Assembly: GCA_035650735.1 (NCBI GenBank)
Contig: DASRGZ010000193.1
Span: 1-56,039, forward strand
DNA length: 56,039 bases
Reading direction: 5' to 3'
Source: Chthonomonadaceae bacterium
GTDB taxonomy: Bacteria; Armatimonadota; Chthonomonadetes; Chthonomonadales; Chthonomonadaceae
Of this stretch, positions 14,194 to 54,186 are shown one piece after another. Each line of letters starts with the position of its first letter. Positions within the stretch are counted from its first letter, which is position 1. Both the position numbers and the translations under genes were made by a program. The notes beneath the pieces were generated by a model, which was not told the origin of the DNA, did no database searches, and was given only the letters and a program-made list of their open reading frames with translations.

Positions 14194-14283
14194 GGAGTGA
14201 TGTCCGAGTTGGTCTAAGGAGCACGACTGGAAATCGTGTAGCGGGCCAACACCCGCTCGAGGGTTCGAATCCCTCTCACTCCG
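14194..14283 (+). tRNA. tRNA-Ser (anticodon GGA), CCA not encoded
   Basis: Acceptor GGAGTGA/TCACTCC; anticodon arm CACGA-CTGGAAA-TCGTG; long variable arm; GGTTCGAATCC. Confidence 0.97.
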
Positions 14284-19832: not shown

Positions 19833-20045
19833 TTACTGGGGCCCTCCCCTGCCTGTGCTGCTGGGGGCTGCCTCCTCGGCTTTGACGCCGGCTGCCTTGC
19901 TTTTGCCCTTGAAGTCGCTGCCTTTGTAGTAGTTCGGGTCATTATCGGACTCATCTTTGCTGCCGCATCCCAGCAAGCCGAGCGGCAGCAGGCCCGCCAG
20001 GAGGGCCAGGCTCATCGCCAGAAGCTGAAAGCGTCGTTTGGGCAT
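19833..20045 (-). CDS. Small lipoprotein (70 aa) with YYKGSDFKGK motif; partner of pseudopilin C
   Basis: GGAGG SD; lipobox LLG-C; motif related to the other three partner genes. Confidence 0.8.
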   Translation of the reverse strand: MPKRRFQLLAMSLALLAGLLPLGLLGCGSKDESDNDPNYYKGSDFKGKSKAAGVKAEEAAPSSTGRGGPQ

Positions 20046-20095
20046 GACTGTTCCTCCGTAGCGTGGCTGCCGCAGGCAGCCACGCGAACCCTGCG

Positions 20096-20150
20096 CTACC
20101 CATTGCCGACCGCCTGTAGCATCCATGCACAGGCGGTCGGCAATGGGTAG
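20096..20150. other. 22-bp perfect stem-loop between pseudopilin C and its partner
   Basis: CTACCCATTGCCGACCGCCTGT / ACAGGCGGTCGGCAATGGGTAG; second hairpin at 20061-20085. Confidence 0.8.
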
Positions 20151-20188
20151 CCTTTGCGGATAACCCGTCTCAGGCGCAGGCGGCGGGG

Positions 20189-20986
20189 TTACCGGTCTGC
20201 GGTAAAGTATTTCTCGAACCAGCACCCGCCTTCGTCCCGCTCCTCGTGGCGCTCCGGGTTGTTGCTGATCCATTTGGAGTGCCCATCCAGGAAGCTGAAG
20301 TTACCGCCGCCCTTGTGGCGGTAGCGCGCCTCACAGCCGAAGGCCGTGCCGACCCTGGGCTGCGGGCTGGCTCCCGGACGCCAGATCGTCCAGGAGTCGC
20401 CGATATTGGCGGTGCGCGCCGGCTGCACGACCGCCGCCAGCGACTCATTATAGTACTGCGAGTCCGCAGAGCCGGCGCGTCCGCTGCCAGGATAGTAGGC
20501 ATACGGCGAATCTTGCGTGCAGTCGCCGAAGACGGTATGGAAGGCGATGCCGTAGTGGGCCAGGTAGAATGAGGGCGGCGGATTCTGAAGCCAGTTATCG
20601 GCTCCGCCATCGCAGTCCGGCTCGGACATGGCCCGGATCGAAGCCTGCTCATTGAACGACGGGCAGAAAAGGATCTGCTTGTTCTTGATGTAGGGCTGGA
20701 TGAGAGTCGTCCAGTTACCGGCGATCTGGACATCCTGCGGGTCTACCCAGCGGTTGGAGGTATTCCAGGGGATGATGATCTCATCGTAGTCCTGGGCGTA
20801 CATCAACTCGCCGAGCGCGATCTGCTTGGTATTGGACAGACAGGCGGTAGCGCGGGCCTGCTCGCGGGCCTGGGCGAAGACAGGGAAGAGGATGGCCGCC
20901 AGGATGGCGATAATGGCGATCACAACGAGGAGTTCAATGAGCGTGAAGCCGGGCGTTTTCCGGCTTTGCGGAGCGAAGTAGTACAT
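20189..20986 (-). CDS. DUF1559 prepilin-type N-methylation protein with H-X9-DG motif (pseudopilin C)
   Basis: [55 protein letters not shown]. Confidence 0.92.
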
Positions 20987-21069
20987 CGTAAACCCTCCCA
21001 AAAAAGTAAGCACGTACAACGTGGAAGTGTCTTAGAGAGTTGATGCAATACGGCGCATCAGCATCATCC

Positions 21070-21324
21070 TTAATCTGGTACCGCGCCTGCCGGGAGCGTA
21101 GGCTTCTTCGATTTCAGCGGCCCGGAAGGGCAGGGCATCAGTTTTCCGTCTTCCGTGTAACAGTGCTCGGGGTCCCCTTTGCTGCGGAACGGGCCGGTAT
21201 AGTAGCCGGGAGCGGCAGACTCCCGAGGCTCCGGCTGCAACAGGATCATCCGCAACACAAAGGCAGCGATGAGAGCCGCCACCAGATAAGCGATCAGTTT
21301 TCGTATTCTATGGCGAAATTCCAC
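21070..21324 (-). CDS. Small single-TM protein (84 aa) with GYYTGPFRSKGDP motif; partner of pseudopilin B
   Basis: N-terminal TM helix; paralog of 22577..22849. Confidence 0.8.
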   Translation of the reverse strand: MEFRHRIRKLIAYLVAALIAAFVLRMILLQPEPRESAAPGYYTGPFRSKGDPEHCYTEDGKLMPCPSGPLKSKKPTLPAGAVPD

Positions 21325-21422
21325 GGGTAATACTCACCAGGTTCAGGATTGCCAGATCGGAGCGAATGCGCCGGGAAGACGCCTCGGCGATCCTCCCCGG
21401 CGCATGGGACATTGCCCTCTGT

Positions 21423-22304
21423 TTACCGCGAAAAGGTGAAGTAGCGGCAGAACCAGATCCCGTCCGTGCCTTGAAGCTCATATCGGTAGGGATTCCGGTT
21501 GATATGCTTGGAGTGGCCGTCCAGGAACGTAAAGTTGCCGCCACCCTGATGCATCTCGGCGCCTTCGCAGCCCATGGCGATGACCGTATAGGGCCCGGCC
21601 GATCCGCCGCTCCACCAGGAGCCGCCATCCGAAGAGATCGCGGTTTCGGAAGGCCGCTGGATTTCGGCCAGATGGCGGGTCAGGCCACCTAACTCAGGCG
21701 GATAGGCCAGGCTGCCCGGTTCCTGATAGCAGGGATTATCGGGCGTGCCGCAATCATCGCAGGCATTGGTGGCAACGTTCTGCAGGCAGCCAGAGGGGTC
21801 GGATTGATAGGCGATGCCGTAGTGGGACCATAGCTCCTTAGCCGGGAAGTACTCGCTCAGGGAGTCGTTGTCGCAGTCTGGCTTGGCGGCGGCGGCCTCA
21901 AACCGATCTAGCGACCAGGAGGGGCAGGCCATAATCCCCTGGGGCTGCTGCTGGCCAGGGAAGGAGCCGCCGTTTTTGATATAGGGCTGTATCTTTGCCA
22001 CCCAGATGCGCTGGCTGCGCGTCACCGTGCCCCCGCCGGTGCAGGAAGGAGAGTCTAAGCTCCCGTTCCATTCGCAGGTATACCAGGGAATGATGGCTTC
22101 ATCGTAATCCTGAGCGTACATCTGAACGGCAGTGCCGATCTCTTTGCAGTTGGAGAGGCAGGAGATGGCGCGCGCTTTTTCGCGGGCTTGGGCGAAGACG
22201 GGGAAGAGAATGGCCGCCAGGATGGCGATAATGGCGATCACGACGAGGAGTTCAATGAGCGTGAAGCCGGTTAGCTTCCGGCTTCGTGAAGCGAAGCGAA
22301 TCAT
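21423..22304 (-). CDS. DUF1559 prepilin-type protein with H-X9-DG motif (pseudopilin B)
   Basis: GFTLIELL...; [23 protein letters not shown] before ATG 22304. Confidence 0.92.
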
Positions 22305-22576
22305 TGTAGACCCTCCCAAAAGAAAAAATAAAGAACCAACCTAGACCGGTACGGGAAGGAACCTATTCCCGTGCCTGAAGGCGCGGCGCCCTCGCTGTCA
22401 GGGGCATACCGCGTCGGAAACAGAAGCCGCGCAACAGGTTTCAAGCCCCATACATATTTCCATCCGGGGCAATCTGTGACGAATTCGAGGCGCGGCTTCT
22501 ATTTCTTTTCATCCCCGTGCCTTACTCCCTGCAAGGGGCAATTATGGTAACGGCGCTCCTCCGGCGCTTTGCTCCG

Positions 22577-22849
22577 CTACTGAGTCGAAGGAGACATGAT
22601 CCTGCTGTTGCCTGTCGGCCCCGGCTTTGTGACCGCAGCCGTGCTCGCCCCAGGCGGCGGAGGAACGATCTTGCCGTCGTCGGTAGCGTAGCGGTTGGGA
22701 TCGCCCTTGCTGCGGAACGGCCCGGTATAGTAGCCCGAGTCGGGAGGCGGCTTCTCCGGCTGTCGCTGCCAGTAGAACGCGACCGCAGCGACCAGCGCCA
22801 GCGCGATCAGGATGCCGGAGAGCACCTGCAATCGACGGTTTGTGCGCAT
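22577..22849 (-). CDS. Small single-TM protein (90 aa) with GYYTGPFRSKGDP motif
   Basis: TM helix; GAGAGG SD; paralog of 21070..21324. Confidence 0.8.
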   Translation of the reverse strand: MRTNRRLQVLSGILIALALVAAVAFYWQRQPEKPPPDSGYYTGPFRSKGDPNRYATDDGKIVPPPPGASTAAVTKPGPTGNSRIMSPSTQ

Positions 22850-22870
22850 GGAAATCCTCTCACCGGACGG

Positions 22871-23077
22871 CTACTGGGTGCCCGGATTGCTCGCAGGGCC
22901 CTTCTGGTTGCCTCCAGTAGGCTTGGCCTTGCCTTTGAACGGGCCTGAGTAGTAGCCCGGGGCGCTCGGCTCCGGCTCTTTATGGCCGCACCCTGCCGTC
23001 AGAAAGGCCAGCAGGCAGGGTGCGGCGATGAGGAGAGCGAGCGGCCATACCGCAGAGCGGCAACCTGCATTGCGCAT
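22871..23077 (-). CDS. Small lipoprotein (68 aa) with GYYSGPFKGK motif; partner of pseudopilin A
   Basis: Lipobox TAG-C; ATG 4 nt after the pseudopilin A stop. Confidence 0.8.
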   Translation of the reverse strand: MRNAGCRSAVWPLALLIAAPCLLAFLTAGCGHKEPEPSAPGYYSGPFKGKAKPTGGNQKGPASNPGTQ

Positions 23078-23081
23078 GGAT

Positions 23082-23969
23082 TTACTCCACAGAGAAGGTA
23101 AAGAATTTCTCATACCACTTCGGATCGTTCTGGTCCGAGGAGCGCATCAGGTAGCGCTCGGCGTTGCGGGAGATGCGCTTGGCATGGCCGTCCAGGAAGA
23201 TGAAGTTGCCGCCGCCCTGGTGCATCTCTGCCGCCTCGCAGCCGAAAGTGATGACGGTGTAGGGCCCACCCGATCCGGCACTCCACCAGGAAGCGCCATC
23301 GGAGATAAGGGCCGTCTCGGCGGGCCGCCGGATTTCGGCCAGATGGCGGGTCAGGCCACCCAAATCGGGCGGATAGGCCAGGCTGCCCGGATATTGGCGG
23401 CAGGGAACGTCCTGTGCGCCGCAGATGGGATTGCCGTTATCATCGGTGGGCTCAAGCGTTGCCATCTGAAACGCGATGCCGTAATGGGCCCAGAACTCTT
23501 TGGTCGGGAAGTAGGCTCCCAGGCCGCTGCCGGGCGTGCCGTTGCCGTCGCAGTCCGGCCGATCCGCCGCCTGGAAGAAGCGATCCTGAGACCAGGAAGG
23601 ACAGGCGAAGACGCCCTGCGGCTGCTGCTGGCCGGGGAAGGAGCCGCCGTTTTTGACGTAGGGCTGCAGCTTTGCCACCCAGATGCGCTGGGCCCGCTGT
23701 ACGGTGCCGTTGCCGGTGCAGGTAGACCCATCCCACTCGCAGGAATACCAGGGGGCAATGGCCTCATCATAGTCCTGGGCATACATGAGCACAGCGGTGC
23801 CGATGTTCTTGCAGTTGGAGAGGCAGGAGATGGCGCGCGCTTTTTCGCGCGCCTGGGCGAAGACGGGGAAGAGGATGGCGGCAAGAATCGCAATGATAGC
23901 GATGACGACGAGCAACTCAATGAGCGTGAACCCGGAGGCAATGCGCCTCCGGAGGTCGCCTGGATGCAT
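23082..23969 (-). CDS. DUF1559 prepilin-type protein with H-X9-DG motif (pseudopilin A)
   Basis: GFTLIELL...; [23 protein letters not shown] before ATG 23969; close paralog of pseudopilin B. Confidence 0.92.
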
Positions 23970-24342
23970 TTGGGTTAACCCTCCCTGAATAAAAATAAGG
24001 ACTGCCGGAAATCGGGCGCGGCGGCAGCGCCGCGGCGGCCTGATCAACTACGACCGCCGCTGCTTGCGCGCACACGACGGAGGAGTTCCTTGATGGAAAA
24101 CAACATTTTGGCACGGTTTCCTAGCAGGCGCCTGCCAGGAGAGGCTGCCCGAGGGCCGCATGGAGCAAAGGTTGGCCCTGCCTGACGACGGTACTGCTCG
24201 CTGCTGGCAATGAAAAACCACGCACAACTCCGATGTGTGCTATATCTCCACAGACAGAAGGGTAGCAGGCACAAAACAACGGGTGCGTGGCGAACGAGCG
24301 CTGCGCTTCCGGCTTCGGAAAGCCCTTATTTCCTAGAATGGG

Positions 24343-24372
24343 ATTATAAGGCACTTTCGCAGCAGATGTCAA
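24343..24372 (-). promoter_or_regulatory. sigma-70 promoter of the pseudopilin array
   Basis: TTGACA-N18-TATAAT on the minus strand, ~370 nt upstream of the first ATG. Confidence 0.75.
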
Positions 24373-26537: not shown

Positions 26538-26846
26538 TCAGGAGGTTTCGGCGCCGCTGGCCTGCTCTTCTGGGGTTCTTTCGCCGCGCGCCTGGCCGCC
26601 CTTGCGCCCGATATCGGCCATATGCCGCCGGTCGCGGGAAACCGTCAGCCCGCCTTTGCGCCCGATACGCGCCATGTGCTCCCGGTTCTGGGAGACCGTC
26701 AGCCCGCCCTTGCGTCCGGCGGCGGCATGGCCCTCGGGATCACCGTGCCAGCCTCTTCCGGCCCGGCCGCGCTGCGCATGCTCCTGGGATCGGTTGTCTT
26801 CCATGGTCTGCGATGGATTGTTCCTATTGGTCTGCCTTTCTGCCAT
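26538..26846 (-). CDS. KGG-repeat general stress protein
   Basis: Three GRKGG repeats (HMARIGRKGG, HMADIGRKGG); AAGGAG SD. Confidence 0.85.
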   Translation of the reverse strand: MAERQTNRNNPSQTMEDNRSQEHAQRGRAGRGWHGDPEGHAAAGRKGGLTVSQNREHMARIGRKGGLTVSRDRRHMADIGRKGGQARGERTPEEQASGAETS

Positions 26847-27097
26847 TTGGCTGCTCCTTCTTGCTGCGCAACGTGCTTGCATTCCGCCCCGGCAATCTCA
26901 GCGGATGTCTGGACTTGGACCGGCAGCCACGTATGCCGGGAATATGCAGGGGATCGCGCTGGTTTGCGTTATTGGAAGAGGATCATTTTGCTGTCGGACG
27001 GGCCTAATGCGCGTCAGGTTCCTCAATTGTTAACGGCGGCCAGGAAGGAAGCTGAGGCGGTCTGATCGAACACAACCGCCAGGATCGGGCAACCCTT

Positions 27098-45336: not shown

Positions 45337-45409
45337 GCGCCTGTAGCTCAGTGGATAGAGCGTTTGCCTCCGGAGCAAAAGGTCGTGCGTTCGAATCGCG
45401 CCAGGCGCG
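45337..45409 (+). tRNA. tRNA-Arg (anticodon CCG), CCA not encoded
   Basis: Acceptor GCGCCTG/CAGGCGC; TAGCTCAGTGGATAGAGC; TTTGC-CTCCGGA-GCAAA; GTTCGAATC. Confidence 0.97.
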
Positions 45410-53376: not shown

Positions 53377-54186
53377 TTAGGGAACTTTGCCGTTACGCTC
53401 GGCATCCTGGAGCGTCTGGCAGAAGGTGTTGAGCCAGGAGAGATCCATACCCCCGAAATTCATGTTGGCCGGGTCGTAGGCCCACATATTGGTGTGGTCG
53501 GGGTTGCTGGGCGTACAGGTCTGGTCCCAGGAAGTGAACTTCACGTGGCCGTCTATAAAGGCGATGGTGCTGAAGCGGTCGCTGCCTTTATGCTTGGCTC
53601 CAAAGTTGGCGCCGGAGGGTCCCCAGTTGGGATCGAAGGCGATCCAGGGACCGTAGTCCACCCAGATATCCTTGTCCTCGGCCACCAGGAGCGAGTTGGC
53701 GGGATACTCAAAGTTGGCCTCGCGATAGTTGAAGCCGCTCCACCAATCTCCCGATCCTATGGCAGCAGACGACTTAAAGAAGGCATGGTAGAAGAAGTAG
53801 CCGCGATAGGTCTTGGTGATATCCGGGACGTATTTTACCGTGCCGTCGGTCTCATCAAGCACCTGGGAGGCCGGGTTGCTGGGGCAGCGGAAGATCTGGT
53901 AGTTCTTGATGTAGGGCTGGAGCAGATGCTTCCAGGAGGCTTCACAGGCGTTGGGGTCACAGACGCGGCGCAGCGGAAAGTTCTCGTCGTAGTCCTGGCT
54001 ATACATGCGGAAGCCCAGCGAGATCTGGCGCATGTTGGAGGCGCAGGAGGTCTGACGCGCGGCCTCACGGGCCTGGGCAAACACCGGGAACAGAATGGCG
54101 GCCAGGATGGCGATGATGGCTATCACGACGAGCAGCTCGATGAGCGTGAAGCCGGAGCGCGAACGAAGGTTGCGGTTCGGGTGCAT
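53377..54186 (-). CDS. DUF1559 prepilin-type protein (pseudopilin D)
   Basis: GFTLIELL...[42 protein letters not shown]. Confidence 0.92.

Follow-up and report, generated by a model that had tools for sequence, protein, structure and literature searches.

The window analysed here, 56,039 nucleotides long, comprises contig DASRGZ010000193.1 of a Chthonomonadaceae bacterium (phylum Armatimonadota, assembly GCA_035650735.1). It carries an array of three DUF1559-type prepilin genes and four genes for small proteins, of 68–90 amino acids, with a predicted membrane anchor and a YYxG motif. We found that this array is a local triplication of a cassette that is conserved across Armatimonadota. The cassette is a real, conserved pilin-plus-peptide module that is undescribed in the sources searched, and its small partner proteins are not described in the literature covered, most subscription journals and supplements lying outside that search.

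The pilin and partner genes of the array

Pilin A (23082–23969, on the minus strand like all seven genes; 295 amino acids) is a DUF1559/H-X9-DG prepilin with a pilin-like head and a subfamily-specific C-terminal extension, as assigned from Pfam and NCBIfam cut-offs and a model of the head. Four bases separate its stop codon from the start of lipoprotein partner 1 (22871–23077; 68 amino acids, predicted lipid-Cys30), whose motif YYSGPFKGK is encoded at 22954–22928. There follow a single-helix transmembrane (TM) partner with the motif and a conserved extension (TM partner 1, 22577–22849; 90 amino acids, YYTGPFRSK at 22732–22706), pilin B (21423–22304; 293 amino acids), a sister paralogue of pilin A with 73% identity over the mature part, and TM partner 2 (21070–21324; 84 amino acids, GTG start, YYTGPFRSK at 21204–21178). 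The array ends with pilin C (20189–20986; 265 amino acids), which is 49% identical to pilin A and belongs to a divergent, mostly partner-less branch, and with lipoprotein partner 2 (19833–20045; 70 amino acids, predicted lipid-Cys27, variant motif YYKGSDFKGK at 19931–19902). The original prediction for this locus had listed the seven open reading frames in this order on one strand and quoted four motif strings, and all of these are present as written. Its pairing of pilins with partners stands in so far as partners follow each pilin, but the pairing is not one-to-one, since pilin A has two partners, pilin B one TM partner and pilin C one lipoprotein. A T-rich tract and a GGGAGGG ribosome-binding site are common to all three pilins (23970–24000, 22305–22335 and 20987–21015, minus strand), and this shared leader fits tandem duplication of the cassette.

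The three long genes had been read as DUF1559/H-X9-DG prepilins, and profile searches bear this out. All three exceeded the cut-offs for the prepilin cleavage/methylation motif (PF07963, TIGR02532) and for DUF1559/SBP_bac_10 (PF07596; 36.8–43.9 bits against a cut-off of 23.3, over profile positions 2–64 of 268 only), and they scored 21.5, 19.0 and 26.4 bits with the H-X9-DG model TIGR04294 (cut-off 19). We know of no established function for DUF1559. The host genome encodes 67 DUF1559-type pilins, an expansion like that in Planctopirus, where the relevant passages of PMC10632474 describe the family as the largest paralogue group (68 copies, two of them essential), and probably like that in Fimbriimonas, with 79 PulG-like genes in the corresponding part of PMC4072686. 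What sets the array pilins apart from the family at large is membership of a separate subfamily, marked by a C-terminal extension and a partner gene of its own; a profile of the C-terminal half of this subfamily gave 202–233 bits for the window pilins, which are members of the profile, and at most 30 bits for the other pilins of the genome. The DUF1559 passages of PMC2754498, PMC10632474, PMC4807772 and PMC5352709 name no partner.

Modelled alone from 143 sequences, the head of pilin A (precursor residues 38–295, 258 residues) reached a predicted local distance difference test score (pLDDT) of 95.3 and a predicted template modelling score (pTM) of 0.92. Its 20 nearest solved folds (VIA search) are all type IV pilins or pseudopilins at Z ≤ 4.9, the best being 6xxd (Z 4.9, root-mean-square deviation 3.2, 96 residues aligned) and 4lw9 (Z 4.8, deviation 3.2, 91 residues aligned). 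These matches mostly align up to about residue 230 of 258, and the last 30 residues constitute the subfamily extension. A first, shallow model of the head (pLDDT 68) gave no Foldseek match against the PDB at E ≤ 0.001, and the ESM Atlas returned a best feature score of 0.81 and no family. The array pilins are predicted to fold like type IV pilins, with an extension at the C-terminus. They share the N-terminal cleavage/methylation motif and, as predicted, the helix-plus-sheet core with type IV pilins and the major pseudopilins of type II secretion systems (PilA4, EpsG, PulG); by contrast, their head is about twice as large, the Z-scores are middling and no equivalog cut-off was reached. All 18 aligned members have the same N-terminal prepilin helix. 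In the heads, C103, C207 and G216 are invariant (head numbering; add 37 for the precursor), as are D223 and H225 over 143 sequences, with H213 present in 99%. We also noted six secretins, one prepilin peptidase and several loci with PF00482 and PF00437 in the host genome; these secretins and many platform and ATPase loci, set against the single prepilin peptidase, amount to an unusually rich complement of type IV filament machines.

The partner proteins are conserved and under purifying selection

A six-frame scan of the 6.5 Mb genome (121,241 segments) found the motif YYxG(1-2)F[KR]xK in the four array frames and nowhere else. It lies within 700 bases downstream of 3 of the 67 DUF1559-type pilins, only those of the window. 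Among database homologues, [YF][YF]xG is present in 181 of 185, and the usual fifth, sixth and ninth residues are Pro, Met and Lys. The motif was first written as YYxGPF[RK]xK; its YYxG core holds, but the family consensus is YYxGPM[KR]xK (position 6 is Met in 134 and Phe in 19 of the 181 motif-bearing homologues), and the last lipoprotein of the array departs from it with a longer form. The view that the partners are otherwise of low complexity does not hold, since in the TM forms the motif is followed by another conserved element, roughly TEDG..VxPP.

The products of 22871–23077 and 19833–20045 have a signal peptide II with a lipobox cysteine and are predicted from this to be lipidated. Gly-Cys follows the hydrophobic stretch in 16 of 16 lipoprotein partners, and the genome encodes Lgt. 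The distance from this cysteine to the tyrosine pair has a median of 11 residues (range 9–17, n = 52), and in TM forms the motif lies a median of 15 residues from the end of a 17-residue hydrophobic window; these values replace the spacing of about 8–11 residues put forward for both anchors. The two forms are homologous (HHalign probability 98.6). Cassettes contain a lipoprotein only, a short TM partner only, a long TM partner only, or two partners in either order. Since lipid and helix anchors thus occur singly or paired, the anchor type is exchangeable around a constant motif.

Pooled ratios of nonsynonymous to synonymous substitution (dN/dS) were 0.16 for TM partners and 0.27 for lipoproteins (five pairs each), and 0.05 for pilins. 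Synonymous codons vary freely under invariant partner residues, and the homologues form 250 clusters at 50% identity, of which the best 150 are all 56–133 amino acids long. Purifying selection and a motif conserved in homologues thus indicate, at the level of sequence, that the small frames are real genes, as had been supposed. The frames are small, and one starts with GTG and lacks a clear ribosome-binding site, as might be expected of chance frames or untranslated remnants of duplicated DNA; against the dN/dS values, the free synonymous variation and the number of homologue clusters, we regard such an origin as exceedingly improbable. No characterised family matches the partners, in line with the original prediction: the four have no Pfam or NCBIfam match above cut-off, 51 of 51 homologues are without a precomputed Pfam domain and none is named beyond 'hypothetical', and a profile of the partners found no match among solved structures at E < 0.1.

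Conservation of the cassette

A search with the 90-amino-acid partner gave matches in 17 of 40 relatives, 16 of them behind the same pilin subfamily and usually accompanied by a lipoprotein. One match of this search (L018, genome G015) has neither motif nor pilin and was dropped as spurious. A scan with the pilin alone gave 49 loci, made up of 45 subfamily members and four weak matches without a partner (L066–L069, 25–41 bits), which were dropped. A partner lies directly downstream in 44 of the 45 loci, and the remaining locus is cut by the contig end. Hosts of the 45 loci are assigned to Armatimonadota groups (36), to 'bacterium' (7) and to Actinomycetota (2), and the pilins of the last nest among the rest. 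A partner-driven scan of metagenomes yielded 29 loci, with a pilin upstream in 23 (one identical to the query and hence not independent), a cut at the contig start in five and one orphan. Of 301 genomes of the phylum, 57 have the pilin and 33 the motif, and 32 of these 33 have both; the 33rd has a broken pilin beside a partner remnant. From this set, 60 of 80 pilin matches were examined for partners. The anticipated enrichment of motif homologues beside DUF1559 genes is therefore real, and it concerns one subfamily.

Altogether 113 distinct heads scored at least 100 bits, of which 90 are partnered, 21 partner-less and two truncated. Partners follow 73 of 73 heads at ≥190 bits, 11 of 14 at 155–190 bits and 6 of 24 at 100–155 bits. 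When only heads less than 90% identical to the training set were counted, 62 of 65 core members were partnered, and clustering of the core at 65% identity gave 22 partnered, one mixed and two partner-less clusters. With nearly all core and few peripheral heads partnered, the partner is tightly linked to the core subfamily yet not obligatory. In the pilin-C branch, three of the four partnered members, the window's included, carry the longer variant YYKGxxFxG[KR]; the same form, longer by one residue, stands behind pilin-C-like genes at loci L062 and L126. In the wider neighbourhood of the 45 loci no flanking gene recurs beyond close kin, the largest cluster being the antisense frame of the pilin itself.

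The cassette decays repeatedly in one genus, g46 (L160, L168, L173, L174, L179), where the pilin is gone or broken and the motif-coding 3' half of the partner is still in frame behind differing 5' breakpoints. Motif matches without a full pilin in this genus include four partner remnants truncated at the 5' end, all at a syntenic site that has no pilin; the others lie beside a broken pilin (one), beside frameshifted pilins (two) and at a contig end (one).

Predicted docking of the partner on the pilin head

We modelled the head of pilin A together with residues 29–69 of the 90-amino-acid TM partner in three runs. The complex scored 0.73 (0.44, 0.73 and 0.78 in the individual runs), compared with 0.01 for the best of three controls; 116 of 157 solved pairs reach the score mark applied, as do 2 of 215 mismatched pairs, and these numbers are approximate for alignments of our own. 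The runs share at least 45% of their contacts, with a partner pLDDT of at least 55. The best contacts join Y40, Y41, G43 and F45 of the partner to head residues 235–237 (R272-Y273-L274 of the precursor), 149–152 and 101–103; in precursor numbering the predicted contacts also take in the loops 137–144 and 185–189, beside the invariant Cys140 and Cys244. The predicted docking site with the lowest-error contacts, codons R272-Y273-L274 of pilin A, maps to 23148–23156 (minus strand). No solved structure of a DUF1559 head or of the partner turned up in sequence searches, hence recall of a solved complex by the model is unlikely.

The contacted residues follow the presence of a partner. R235, Y236 and L237 are kept in 99%, 94% and 80% of the 90 partnered heads versus 43%, 48% and 19% of the 21 partner-less heads, and R235 and Y236 had already been flagged from sequence alone before the complex was modelled. 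Partner-linked conservation is enriched in the 11 columns with the best contacts (permutation p = 0.016). Among peripheral heads, 16 of the 17 with a partner keep Arg235, compared with 9 of the 21 without one, and a partner-less branch of four (L119, L120, L122, L124) has Ser at this position. The model predicts that the YY motif docks on the C-terminal extension of the pilin head. The motif had been proposed as a docking peptide that caps, chaperones or completes the globular domain; a confident interface through the YY motif, for this pilin/partner pair, is indeed predicted, whereas completion of the domain is not supported, given the confident model of the head alone and the 21 of 111 assessable relatives that are partner-less.

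Pilins of two chains have a precedent. In Geobacter sulfurreducens the genes for PilA-N and PilA-C are adjacent, and PilA-C supplies the globular domain that PilA-N is missing. The two chains have 61 and 104 amino acids in the account given in the relevant part of PMC11046646, and the passages of PMC9207759 on the hybrid PilA-N/PilA-C filament treat its physiological status as disputed. In the array, by contrast, the 258-residue head of the pilin is complete and its partner is a peptide with an anchor. A head that models well without the partner speaks against a split pilin of the PilA-N/PilA-C kind; a missing domain of the PilA-C type is unlikely for the same reason. A looser version would have the partner freed from its anchor and joining the filament as a second chain. 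The heterodimeric precedent and the predicted contact with the head speak for this, but the head folds alone, the partners have no globular domain and they keep a lipobox or helix anchor 11–15 residues from the motif. Fused pilin-partner forms were absent from 8,000 long candidates, which is weak evidence, and from the best 150 of 250 homologue representatives. We consider such a second chain very unlikely.

An accessory tether is therefore likelier than a missing piece of the pilin. On balance we lean slightly towards a conserved cassette in which one or two YYxG microproteins dock on the pilin head, the partner likely being an accessory tether that braces it. Several observations weigh against this. 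One of the three runs of the complex reached only 0.44, the TM form is the sole form modelled, and the controls were unrelated proteins with no DUF1559 pilin among them, while close cousins can pass. Taken together, all 29 interface columns show only weak enrichment (p = 0.083), and related sequences are not independent of one another. Of the peripheral heads, 18 of 24 lack a downstream partner, as do 3 of the 87 core heads that could be assessed, and a genome-wide partner search found none in 9 of 10 genomes tested, a search that is not fully sensitive because it missed a real variant in genome G016. At locus L081 (2923–3207) there is an intact 94-amino-acid TM partner, and the 2.9 kb upstream of it contain no pilin. 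As to the inferred topology, the net charge of TM partners points to N-in for 99 of 164, is balanced in 40 and points the other way in 25, and since the genome has a LolA-like gene the lipoprotein could go to the outer membrane.

It might then be that the small proteins, though real and inherited together with the pilin, have another target, such as one another, a secretin or alignment subunit, or a substrate, and that the modelled interface is spurious. Operon neighbours need not bind, and the intact orphan at L081, the partner-less pilins and the unrelated controls are all compatible with such a target. However, the modelled contacts fall on the very residues that decay in partner-less pilins, and the motif varies with the pilin branch, as in the pilin-C branch. 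Obligatory pairing of the partners with each other is excluded, because single-partner cassettes exist. We judge a different target decidedly unlikely.

Binding could also serve another end. The DUF1559 protein might be non-polymerising and form, with its partner or partners, a permanent, doubly anchored periplasmic receptor or solute-binding unit. The same predicted binding would support this arrangement, as would the Pfam name SBP_bac_10, the description as a solute-binding family in the pertinent passages of PMC2754498, the 67 paralogues in one genome and a cassette without conserved synteny to assembly genes. Nevertheless, the prepilin helix does not vary among the 18 aligned members, the nearest structural matches of the head are pilins and include no solute-binding fold, and about six secretin systems are encoded in the genome. 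We hold a permanent co-subunit to be unlikely.

A second DUF1559 subfamily with a small partner

Small anchored proteins are found behind other members of the family. In the host genome, 27 of 66 DUF1559 genes are followed by a small single-anchor open reading frame, versus 62 of 3,359 roughly defined control genes, and several of the control matches sit just upstream of DUF1559 genes; the rule may therefore be family-wide. A second pair consists of a small TM protein with the motif PGMYD[FL]RxE behind a different DUF1559 subfamily, recognisable by the tail WG[IV]P[YF]KxxDGxWGL. Its partner loci include G000:C198:66720–66938 (plus strand; L195, L197) and G000:C220:11319–11492 (minus strand). 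A search with this partner gave matches in 25 of 61 genomes. All 19 examined loci at E ≤ 3e-7 have that pilin directly upstream, and none of the six weak matches has it. The strong loci suggest one motif per subfamily. Elsewhere, at L136 (G251:C9:67070–68980), a peripheral pilin precedes two small anchored proteins that share SPFAxGGP and not YYxG.

Control region and other genes in the window

A promoter-like site, TTGACA-18-TATAAT, matches the sigma-70 consensus at 12 of 12 positions (24343–24372, minus strand) about 370 bases upstream of pilin A, and likely drives the array. Three sigma-70-like sites were counted against a shuffle mean of 1.3, and this is the sole 12/12 match. The 371-base leader of pilin A folds slightly better than shuffled sequences (z = −1.8) and has no Rfam match; we therefore make no claim of a riboswitch. 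An Rfam scan of the whole window returned two tRNA genes only (14194–14283 and 45337–45409, plus strand). The array is flanked by a Maf gene and a methyltransferase gene.

A fourth DUF1559 prepilin (53377–54186, minus strand) lies outside the subfamily and adjoins a Glycoamylase gene (PF10091); no small anchored frame was found downstream of it. At 26538–26882 (minus strand), a frame of 114 amino acids contains three repeated GRKGG blocks and has no Pfam match at E 0.001; we take it to resemble the stress-induced KGG-repeat proteins.

Discussion

A working model would run as follows. The single prepilin peptidase would process the pilins, which would supply one of the roughly six secretin-type machines. 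With its motif 11–15 residues from the membrane, the partner would stay in the inner membrane and bind the head there. It may stabilise or mature the extension, perhaps through a Cys140–Cys244 disulfide (C103–C207 of the head), in the manner of LptM, and it would release the pilin or stay behind when the pilin is used.

The nearest functional parallel is LptM (YifL), a tiny lipoprotein whose anchor-adjacent motif, C-GLKGPLYF, binds and stabilises LptD, according to 10.1101/2025.01.03.631273. The array partners may be functional analogues, with a short motif next to the anchor and a larger folded target. The target of LptM is an outer-membrane barrel, whereas here it would be a pilin head, and here a helix can replace the lipid anchor. 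By sequence the partners are not members of the LptM family: 2 of 16 full-length lipoproteins match NF047847 weakly (best E 0.0076), and 0 of 46 mature partner parts match any NCBIfam model at E 0.1.

More broadly, and with rather less than even confidence, we suggest that DUF1559 pilins form cognate pairs under a peptide code, in which the extension of each subfamily would read the motif of its own membrane-anchored microprotein and the partners would help dozens of paralogous pilins, by tethering, maturing or sorting them, to reach the correct one of several type IV filament machines. The second subfamily, with another motif, provides a natural negative control. Together with the residue-level interface, this makes binding and specificity testable with two short constructs. 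DUF1559 thereby gains a candidate partner and a predicted interface at residue level (Y40/Y41/G43/F45 with R272/Y273/L274). If true, the peptide code would add a hitherto undescribed layer of accessory proteins to the largest orphan family in Armatimonadota and Planctomycetota.

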